A DNA stretch of 64,000 nt, from positions 52,911 through 116,910 of the forward strand of contig JACKBI010000019.1 in the NCBI GenBank assembly GCA_020634615.1, given 5' to 3'. This document shows positions 19,015-21,257 of this stretch, piece after piece. The notes beneath the pieces were generated by a model. It saw nothing but the letters and a program-made list of their open reading frames with translations, did no database searches and was not told the DNA's origin. Each line of letters starts with the position of its first letter. The first letter of the stretch is position 1. A program made the translations under genes and the position numbers. Origin of the DNA: Anaerolineales bacterium (lineage in GTDB: Bacteria; Chloroflexota; Anaerolineae; JAAEKA01).

Positions 19015-20070
19015 ATGACTGATCCTTTGACCAACCTCCAGTGCCCGATCCCGATCAGCGACTACCCGACCGTCACGCTGGCTCATGGCGGCGGCGGGCG
19101 ACTGACACAGATGCTGATCGAGCGCATGTTCCTGCCGGCGTTCGACAACCCGCAGCTTGTCCAGCAGCACGACGGCGCGCTGCTGGAGGTCAACGGCGCG
19201 CGGCTGGCCTTTTCCACCGACTCGTTTGTCATCAGCCCGCTGTTTTTCCCCGGCGGCGACATCGGCTCCCTGGCAGTGCACGGCACGGTCAACGACCTGG
19301 CGATGTGCGGCGCACAGCCGCTGGCCCTTTCGACGGGACTGATCTTGGAGGAAGGGCTGCCGATGGAGGATCTTTGGCGGGTGGTGCAGTCGATGCAAGG
19401 CGCAGCACAAGCCGTGGGCGTCTCTGTGGTTACCGGTGACACAAAAGTGGTGGACCGCGGCAAGGGCGACGGCGTCTACATCAACACCACCGGCATCGGA
19501 CTGATCCCGGCTGGCGTCCAGATTTCACCGACGCGCGCGCGGCGCGGCGATCTGGTGCTGGTCAGCGGTGCGATCGCCGTCCACGGGATCGCCATCATGT
19601 CGGTGCGCGAGGGACTGGCGTTCGAGACGACGCTGGCCAGCGACTCGGCGCCGCTGCACGAGATGGTGCGGGAGATGCTGGCGGTTGGCGGCGACCATGT
19701 GCATGTGCTGCGCGATCCGACGCGCGGTGGTGTCGCCAGCGCGTTGAACGAGATCGCCGGATCGGCACGGATCGGCATCCGGCTGAACGAAGCAGCGATA
19801 CCGATCTGGGATCAGGTGCGTGGGGCGTGCGAGATTCTCGGGCTGGACCCCTTGTATGTGGCCAACGAAGGCAAGCTGCTGGCGATCGTGGCCCCAGAAG
19901 CGGCCGACGCGGTGCTGGCCGCCATGCAGGCGCATTCACTGGGCAGAGAAGCAGCCATTATCGGCGAGGTCACAGAGGAACACCGCGGCCGCGTGGTGCT
20001 GCGCAGCCGCATCGGCGGCTCGCGTGTCGTAGACATGATCAGCGGCGAGCAGTTGCCGCGCATCTGCTGA
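19015..20070 (+). CDS. hypE: Hydrogenase maturation protein HypE
   Basis: [38 protein letters not shown]-terminal QLPRIC. Confidence 0.95.
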
Positions 20071-20157
20071 AAACTCACCACAGAGACGCAGAGAGCGCAC
20101 AGGGGAACTAGTAACCCGCTTTCTGGACTGGCCCCCCCCCCCGCACCAATCACTCTC

Positions 20158-21006
20158 CTACTGCGCCAGAGCAGCTTCGATCCGCCGGCTTAACTCCGCG
20201 TACGATTGGGCGCCGGGTATCAACTCGCCATTGATCGAGAAGGTGGGGCGTAGTCGAATGCTCTCCGCGCGACGGGCGCGGTCCAGTTCGTTGGCTTTGT
20301 CGGCATACTGGCCGTTGTCCAGGCACTGGCGGAACTGATCAAGGTTCGAAACGCCAGCGCGCCCGGCAAACTCAACAAACAAATCGGTGTCTGCGCTCCA
20401 CAACTGGCCCTGCTCCTCATAGAACAGATCGTGAATCGCCCAGAAGAACTGGGGATCCTGCTCGCCGGCGCATTCCGCTGCCTGGTAAGCTTTAGGCGTC
20501 GGCGCTAAGTCCAAAATCGGGTAGTACACGTAGCGAATCTTGCCGCTGTCTGCGTAGTCGGCGATCACTTGCGGCTCGGTGGATAGCACGTATCCACGGC
20601 ACGCGCTTCAGAGGAAATCCGAGTAGTCGATCACCGTCACAGCGGCAGCCGGATTACCGCGGAAGTAAAGACCGTCCTCGGTTTGGCCGAAGGTGCTGGT
20701 CACTTCTGGCGCCGGCTCGGGTGTATCCGTAGGAGGGATTGGGGTGTCGGTGGAAGGCAGCGCAGTAGCCGTCGCCGATGCGACCTCTGCTGCAGCCGGC
20801 GCAGGCGTGTCCGTTGGCTGTTGTGGTGTGTCCTCAGGCGCCACCGTGGGTAGGTTGGTTGCGGTCGCGACGGCTTGTGCCACCTCTTTGACCGGCGTCG
20901 CAGATGACGCAGTCTGCTCCGCTCCGCCGCAGGCTGCCGCCAAAATGCTGACCAACAACAAAAGCGCCAACAATTTCCACTGGCTCGCGCGTCGATCTCG
21001 TTTCAT
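20158..21006 (-). CDS. DsbA/thioredoxin-family lipoprotein, probable selenoprotein (U-S-A-C via TGA at 20608..20610)
   Basis: ORFs 20608..21006 and 20158..20589 are in one frame separated by TGA, giving VTVIDYSDFL-U-SAC. Lipobox LAAAC; cis-Pro loop LRPTFSING. Confidence 0.8.
20579..20597 (-). promoter_or_regulatory. Candidate bacterial SECIS hairpin
   Basis: GUGGAUA-CGUGC-UAUCCAC perfect 7-bp stem starting 10 nt after the in-frame UGA. Confidence 0.6.
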
Positions 21007-21053
21007 ATCTCTCGTTCCTCTGTGTGTCTGAATCGAAGCCGGTGATGCACTCC

Positions 21054-21257
21054 GTCACTCCCGCGCGGGCGGGAGTCCACAACGCACTCAATGCGAAGCG
21101 ATGATTCTGCACAACTGCGCTCTGGATGCCCGCCTTCGCGGGCATGACACATGTTCAAGTCCATCACTCCCGCGCAGGCGGGAGTCTACAACGCACTCAA
21201 GGCGAAGTGATGATTCTGCACAACCATGCTCTGGATGCCCGCTTTCGCGGCCATGAC
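21054..21257. repeat. Two tandem ~95-bp REP-like palindromic units (TCACTCCCGCG..GCGGGAGTC / GGATGCCCGC..GCGGGCATGAC)
   Basis: Near-identical units at 21054..21148 and 21162..21257, including the internal spacer. Confidence 0.8.

Follow-up and report, generated by a model that had tools for sequence, protein, structure and literature searches.

The minus-strand segment 20158..21006 of the window (the whole 64,000-nucleotide stretch of contig JACKBI010000019.1 analyzed here, from an Anaerolineales bacterium) very probably holds, as judged from its sequence, a single gene for a selenocysteine (Sec)-containing thioredoxin-like lipoprotein of NCBIfam family NF041057, the Rcas_1661 family, which appears as 'DsbG-like' in the Gladyshev catalogue. 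The computed basis for this assignment comprises one continuous reading frame, membership of the family, conservation of an in-frame TGA, covariation in the SECIS hairpin that follows it, a complete Sec machinery in the genome, and the predicted fold of the catalytic domain.

Gene structure, family assignment and the conserved TGA

The ORF listing of the window divides the gene in two, with a 132-aa ORF at 20608..21006 (minus strand) that ends ...VTVIDYSDFL-TGA and a 143-aa ORF at 20158..20589 (minus strand). Read from 21006 to 20158 with TGA translated as Sec (U), the minus strand gives one frame of 282 codons that runs from an ATG at 21006..21004 to a TAG and contains exactly one in-frame TGA, the terminal TAG being the only other stop; the active-site stretch of the fused frame is ...IDYSDFL-U133-S-A-C136-RGYVLSTEP.... 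A Shine-Dalgarno-like AGAGGAA, read from the sequence, lies 8 nt upstream of the ATG (21015..21021, minus strand), and translation would start at this ATG. An earlier sequence-only reading had described the two ORFs and a 7-bp hairpin at +10, all of which lie in the sequence where it had placed them, and had taken the ORFs to be one protein. In agreement with this proposal, a Pfam search of the fused protein identified a Thioredoxin_4 (DsbA/BdbD-type) catalytic domain that covers residues 115-277 (20176..20664, minus strand; PF13462, 1.9e-26, 93.6 bits) and bridges the TGA.

The predicted lipoprotein signal peptide comprises residues 1-25, which together with the lipobox Cys26 span 20929..21006 (minus strand), and its basic n-region, with four Lys or Arg within the first seven residues, is followed by the hydrophobic LLALLLLVSILAAA. 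The segment LLLVSILAAAC, which ends in Cys26, matches a PS51257-like lipobox rule, and the equivalent Cys is kept in all 10 orthologues, consistent with the lipoprotein status that had been proposed. Residues 27-107 (20686..20928, minus strand) form a low-complexity stalk rich in Ala, Thr, and Pro (17, 16, and 14 of 81 residues, respectively), the length and sequence of which differ between orthologues. The preprotein would be exported, lipidated on Cys26, and cleaved, and the lipid and the 81-residue stalk would tether the mature protein to the outer face of the cytoplasmic membrane. Within the catalytic domain, the UGA at 20608..20610 (minus strand) is the predicted Sec codon for U133, with which the redox motif U-S-A-C opens; it falls in a conserved TGA column that is occupied by Cys in other homologues. 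The putative resolving cysteine of the UxxC motif, C136 (20599..20601, minus strand; C29 in the numbering of alignment A1), occupies a near-invariant column (at least 90% of the 33 aligned sequences). Pro254 (20245..20247, minus strand), the presumed cis-Pro of the thioredoxin fold, is part of RLRPTF and corresponds to the invariant column P147 of alignment A1, just before a β-strand at model residues 148-151.

The fused protein scored 243.2 bits against NF041057.1, for which the curated cut-off is 190 bits, with residues 16-278 aligned to profile positions 2-246 of 247; in the six-frame search of the genome the score was 235.5 bits. NF041057 is an equivalog model entitled 'Rcas_1661 family thioredoxin-like (seleno)lipoprotein', and the gene is an ordinary member of this already curated selenoprotein family. 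In a 2026 review (PMC13188914), NF041057 appears among the selenoprotein families under the name 'DsbG-like protein', with the motif UxxC and the grade 'predicted with high confidence', and the 2005 Sargasso Sea paper assigned DsbG-like to COG1651, with a UXXC motif, as a previously reported candidate selenoprotein (PMC1088965). 'DsbA-like' in the naming of Zhang and Gladyshev is a separate family, PF01323/COG2761. Our protein resembles the 'DsbA-like protein form 1' of the 2005 Sargasso Sea paper in its thioredoxin fold, its UxxC motif, and a bacterial SECIS that directly follows the UGA, but it belongs to another subfamily: PF01323 matched the fused protein weakly (31.5 bits, residues 170-276 only), and membership of 'DsbA-like form 1' was rejected, with PF13462 and NF041057 as the proper models. 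The label 'DsbA-like' given by the sequence-only reading is refined accordingly, the family being 'DsbG-like' (COG1651, equivalent to NF041057) in that naming. A literature search for 'Rcas_1661' returned no match.

A survey of 301 Chloroflexota genomes with NF041057 yielded 25 matches above the cut-off in 21 genomes, 11 of them with TGA and 14 with Cys, and a Cys member (P0004, CPTC) bears the family name in NCBI. With the family the protein shares the lipoprotein signal, the thioredoxin-like domain, a [U/C]xxC motif with Sec in first position, and the phylum Chloroflexota; with the Sec members it also shares a homologous SECIS with a CGUG loop. When we searched 41 genomes (the window's own and 40 relatives) for orthologues, all 10, the window's own included, had exactly one in-frame TGA in the same column, in the context YSDFL-U-[G/S]-[A/S]-C-RGYVLSTE. 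The nine others are 56-77% identical and come from several genera of a single family, the named relatives among their carriers being Caldilineales/Anaerolineae MAGs. Unlike other members of NF041057, which have U-T-x-C or C-P-T-C, this Caldilineales/Anaerolineae clade has U-[G/S]-A-C; its Ala/Thr/Pro stalk is longer, and in contrast to the mixture of Sec and Cys in the family as a whole the 10 orthologues found in it are Sec forms without exception. Beyond the clade, TGA stands in the same column in 10 additional NF041057 members across Chloroflexota, and in 18 of 18 further TGA-bearing homologues of the class, some of them lipoproteins and some membrane-anchored, it stands at the first Cys of CxxC. 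Cys homologues have C-P-[Y/F/T]-C at the Sec position, and the column that reads YSDFQ-C-PYC or YSDFI-C-PTC in them confirms the earlier placement of the TGA at the first catalytic Cys. An alignment of homologues had been suggested as a check, with Cys or TGA expected at the site; both were seen, and only TGA among the 10 orthologues.

The main value of these assignments lies in annotation, in that plain callers yield a 132-aa "hypothetical lipoprotein" and a 143-aa "thioredoxin domain protein". The claim that standard pipelines split the gene is correct for such plain ORF callers; in NCBI, on the other hand, an equivalog model already gives the family the name (seleno)lipoprotein. Because plain gene callers split the gene, exported selenoproteins of Chloroflexota are probably under-counted in metagenome protein catalogues. 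A search of 5.8 billion proteins found no close full-length relative, with the best matches 31-35% identical, and such a gap in the protein catalogue would be expected if the entries for the orthologues were split fragments. These findings point to no new biology; what they add is descriptive, namely a family-specific SECIS (7 bp of covarying stem and the loop CGUGY, placed 10 nt behind the UGA), a Cys member in which the hairpin persists, and a genome with at least three selenoproteins.

Predicted fold and direction of catalysis

We modeled residues 108-282 with AlphaFold using a 33-sequence alignment, which gave a pLDDT of 97.2 and a pTM of 0.92. U133 (model residue 26) immediately precedes the helix formed by model residues 27-35, and is thus at the N-terminus of α1; Pro254 is model residue 147. 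Foldseek identified Bacillus subtilis BdbD (PDB 3eu4) as the top match to the model, with a TM-score of 0.90 and E = 2.8e-12, followed by DsbA/TsdA of Corynebacterium diphtheriae (TM 0.83-0.86 for DsbA), the DsbA proteins of Chlamydia and Wolbachia, and DsbA of Mycobacterium tuberculosis; these matches of the model define a thioredoxin fold with an inserted helical domain. A phmmer search of the PDB sequences also found BdbD (6.4e-12).

Like BdbD (PDB 3eu3 and 3eu4) and the actinobacterial DsbA/MdbA proteins (4pwo, 4jr4, and 4z7x), the modeled domain consists of a thioredoxin core and a helical insert, places its redox motif at the start of helix α1, across from a conserved Pro loop, and is predicted to be extracytoplasmic and membrane-tethered in a monoderm-type envelope. 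It differs from them in sequence (about 21-22% identity), in having Sec for the nucleophilic Cys, and in the lack of an adjacent BdbC/VKOR partner gene. On the strength of the model, we predict the protein to be an extracytoplasmic thiol-disulfide oxidoreductase of the BdbD/DsbA type in which a selenol makes the attack. A selenylsulfide/selenol-thiol couple formed by U133-x-x-C136 would serve the domain in thiol-disulfide exchange with exported proteins, and the attacking Sec at the start of α1 would face the Pro254 loop.

As for the direction of catalysis, analogy inclines us slightly toward an oxidase or isomerase resembling DsbA and BdbD rather than a reductase, because the closest solved relatives are oxidases and the genome encodes VKOR. 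Of its two VKOR genes, one immediately follows a Cys paralogue and neither lies near the selenoprotein gene, and CcdA is encoded as well; the gene-context search found no redox partner adjacent to the selenoprotein gene. A tentative but credible reading is that the selenoprotein is real and serves as an extracytoplasmic reductase, fed by CcdA in the manner of ResA/CcmG/DsbE, or as a selenium/metalloid handler, rather than as a DsbA/BdbD-type oxidase. The canonical Cys paralogue that adjoins a VKOR gene (C23:229840-230765) probably covers the oxidase role, CcdA is at hand in the genome, and the dipeptide of the orthologue clade, U-[G/S]-A-C without the usual Pro, is unusual. In glutaredoxin, a Cys-to-Sec replacement is reported by Metanis et al. 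(2006) to make the redox potential about 70 mV lower, which would also suit a reductase. Against this reading, the nearest solved relatives by structure and by sequence, namely BdbD, DsbA/MdbA of C. diphtheriae, and DsbA of M. tuberculosis, are all oxidases, and the selenoprotein gene is unlinked to CcdA or cytochrome-maturation genes.

We consider it improbable that the always-Sec clade, defined by Sec in 10 of 10 members, U-[G/S]-A-C, RLRP[T/S]F, and the lack of a link to VKOR or CcdA, is functionally distinct, for example as a surface reductase/isomerase or a selenium/metalloid handler; the CGUG pentaloop would then be an undescribed SelB signal specific to Chloroflexota. Why Sec serves in an extracytoplasmic disulfide catalyst is a biochemical question for the whole NF041057 family.

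The SECIS hairpin and the proposed decoding of UGA

The putative SECIS upper stem-loop (20579..20597, minus strand) is separated from the UGA by a 10-nt spacer and consists of a 7-bp stem, with the 5' arm GUGGAUA at 20597..20591 and the 3' arm UAUCCAC at 20585..20579, closed by the loop CGUGC at 20590..20586. The folding energy of the surrounding 86-nt stretch was not significant relative to shuffled sequences (z = -0.20), so that energy alone gives no evidence, and tests of conservation and covariation were used in its place. Among the 10 orthologues, a single codon is used in 6 of the 9 conserved degenerate columns at codons +3 to +9, compared with 4 of 57 elsewhere in the gene (Fisher p = 1.6e-4), and of 30 nucleotides around the hairpin 25 do not vary, compared with a median of 11 across the gene.

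For covariation, we aligned 20 Sec forms, made up of the 10 orthologues and 10 NF041057 Sec members of other Chloroflexota. The register of the hairpin is constant across this alignment while the stems differ (CCGUCA/UGACGG, CUUCCA/UGGAAG, CCGCUA/UAGCGG, and others). Pairing was found in 95.7% of the stem cells of the alignment, versus 27-61% when the partner was slid by 1-3 columns, and five of the seven stem pairs show compensatory change on both sides. The covariation score was 0.766 compared with 0.252 for shuffled alignments, none of 500 shuffles scoring equally high. These results establish as real the SECIS-like hairpin that the sequence-only reading had proposed. All 20 Sec forms have CGUG in the loop, with C or U as the next base, a constancy that is partly forced by the conserved [Y/H]-V residues. 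RNAalifold retained the 7-bp upper stem only, and we make no claim for a lower SECIS stem, which is absent from this consensus and for which the folds of individual sequences disagree. An Rfam scan of the window at gathering thresholds returned no matching family.

Like the bacterial SECIS of the Escherichia coli fdhF type, the hairpin lies within the coding sequence directly 3' of the UGA and has a small apical loop that contains G-U; the spacer is 11 nt in E. coli fdhF and 10 nt here. It is unlike the fdhF element in sequence, in an upper stem that lacks the bulged U, and in the family-specific pentaloop CGUGY. The 7-bp/CGUGC hairpin would recruit SelB with Sec-tRNA(Sec) to the UGA at 20610..20608, resulting in insertion of Sec and no termination. 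Among the other members of NF041057, a Cys form (L070; G174:C147:8495-9450) has the active site DFL-C-SVC, with TGT as the Cys codon, and an intact hairpin, CGCCGUCA-CGUGU-UGACGG, which is also found in its Sec-form close relatives L059 and L061; this hairpin may be left over from a recent Sec-to-Cys conversion.

The source genome is a 5.49-Mb draft in 24 contigs with about 90% completeness. Genome searches identified selA (568 bits), selB (343 bits), and selD (353 bits), and ARAGORN located a single-copy tRNA-SeC(tca) at C23:56474-56571, which scores 71.7 bits against Rfam RF01852 (threshold 47). The sequence-only reading had pointed to selA, selB, selC, and selD as a check and to missing Sec machinery as a ground for refutation; with all four genes found, that ground falls away. 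An ARAGORN scan of the window itself detected no tRNA, the tRNA-Sec being located elsewhere in the genome. TGA also serves as a normal stop: the hypE-like neighbor terminates PRIC-TGA (20068..20070), and TGA is the terminal stop in four orthologues of the selenoprotein gene. Reassignment of the code was rejected on these grounds.

Were the UGA to terminate translation, the products would be a 132-aa lipoprotein stalk and a separate, truncated thioredoxin-fold protein of 143 aa initiated at GTG 20589. We regard this as very unlikely, even though a plain ORF caller gives exactly these two ORFs, because the 143-aa product would have neither β1 nor any part of the UxxC active site and would carry no signal peptide, the GTG falls inside the loop of the hairpin with no Shine-Dalgarno-like sequence seen upstream of it, and the Pfam and NF041057 profiles continue uninterrupted across the TGA, with residues 108-132 on its N-terminal side conserved as part of the domain. 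A sequencing or assembly error in a genome of draft quality, with TGA in place of TGC or TGT, or a recent nonsense mutation in a dead gene is effectively excluded, since the same TGA column recurs in 10 independent orthologue assemblies and 28 further homologues, the downstream frame is conserved at the protein level, and selection acts on the hairpin, whose synonymous sites are frozen and whose stem changes are compensatory.

Other selenoproteins and the gene neighborhood

The evidence indicates that the genome encodes at least three selenoproteins, namely the product of the present gene, a paralogue on contig C18, and SelD, the gene for which (L001; G000:C6:77000-77962, plus strand) has its own in-frame TGA at the canonical catalytic G-U-A-S-K site. 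The TGA-bearing paralogue (L043; G000:C18:297746-298510, plus strand) is a predicted lipoprotein (LLLLAC) with the active site IIDFSDFQ-U-PYC and a GTPTF cis-Pro loop. It scored 174.5 bits against NF041057 in the six-frame genome search and 150.9 bits with the domain only, both below the cut-off of 190, and is probably another Sec oxidoreductase that the curated model leaves unnamed. In other families of the class, Sec DsbA-like domains with U-P-[A/Y]-C (L046, L050, L052, and L053) are fused at the C-terminus to an apparent cyclophilin-type PPIase (...IELYAD.AP.TVNNFVFLA...).

Cys-type relatives also occur in the genome of the window. At C23:229840-230765 (plus strand) there is a Cys DsbA-like gene with a VKOR gene immediately behind it, and the two look like the canonical oxidative pair of the genome. 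A 650-aa ORF at G000:C12:62825-64537 (minus strand) has three tandem Cys-type Thioredoxin_4 domains, and a CcdA/DsbD_TM gene lies a few kb away at C12:56507-57460 (minus strand).

The neighbors of the selenoprotein gene encode a PD40 β-propeller lipoprotein, a HypE-like protein, an acyl-CoA dehydrogenase, a class IV aminotransferase, and a Tudor-domain protein. The acyl-CoA dehydrogenase gene is upstream in 8 of the 10 orthologous loci and hypE is downstream in 5, which we read as plain synteny, setting aside a functional link to either. The downstream neighbor, at 19015-20070 of the window (plus strand), encodes an AIR-synthase-fold protein that ends ...PRIC, which we take to be the C-terminal signature of HypE, and it is convergent with the selenoprotein gene, as in 5 of the 10 orthologous loci. 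The short convergent gap between its stop at 20070 and the selenoprotein stop at 20158 contains a run of about 11 C (ggcccccccccccgc, 20133-20145); homopolymers of about 11 nt are error-prone in assemblies. Upstream of the selenoprotein gene, the intergenic positions 21051-21257 contain two tandem copies of an element of about 98 nt, 90% identical and spaced 109 nt apart, with GC-rich palindromic ends (TCACTCCCGCGCGGGCGGGAGT ... GGATGCCCGCCTTCGCGGGCATGAC). The element is a dispersed REP/MITE-like repeat, for which blastn found 27 full or partial matches, including both copies in the window, on 12 contigs of the genome.
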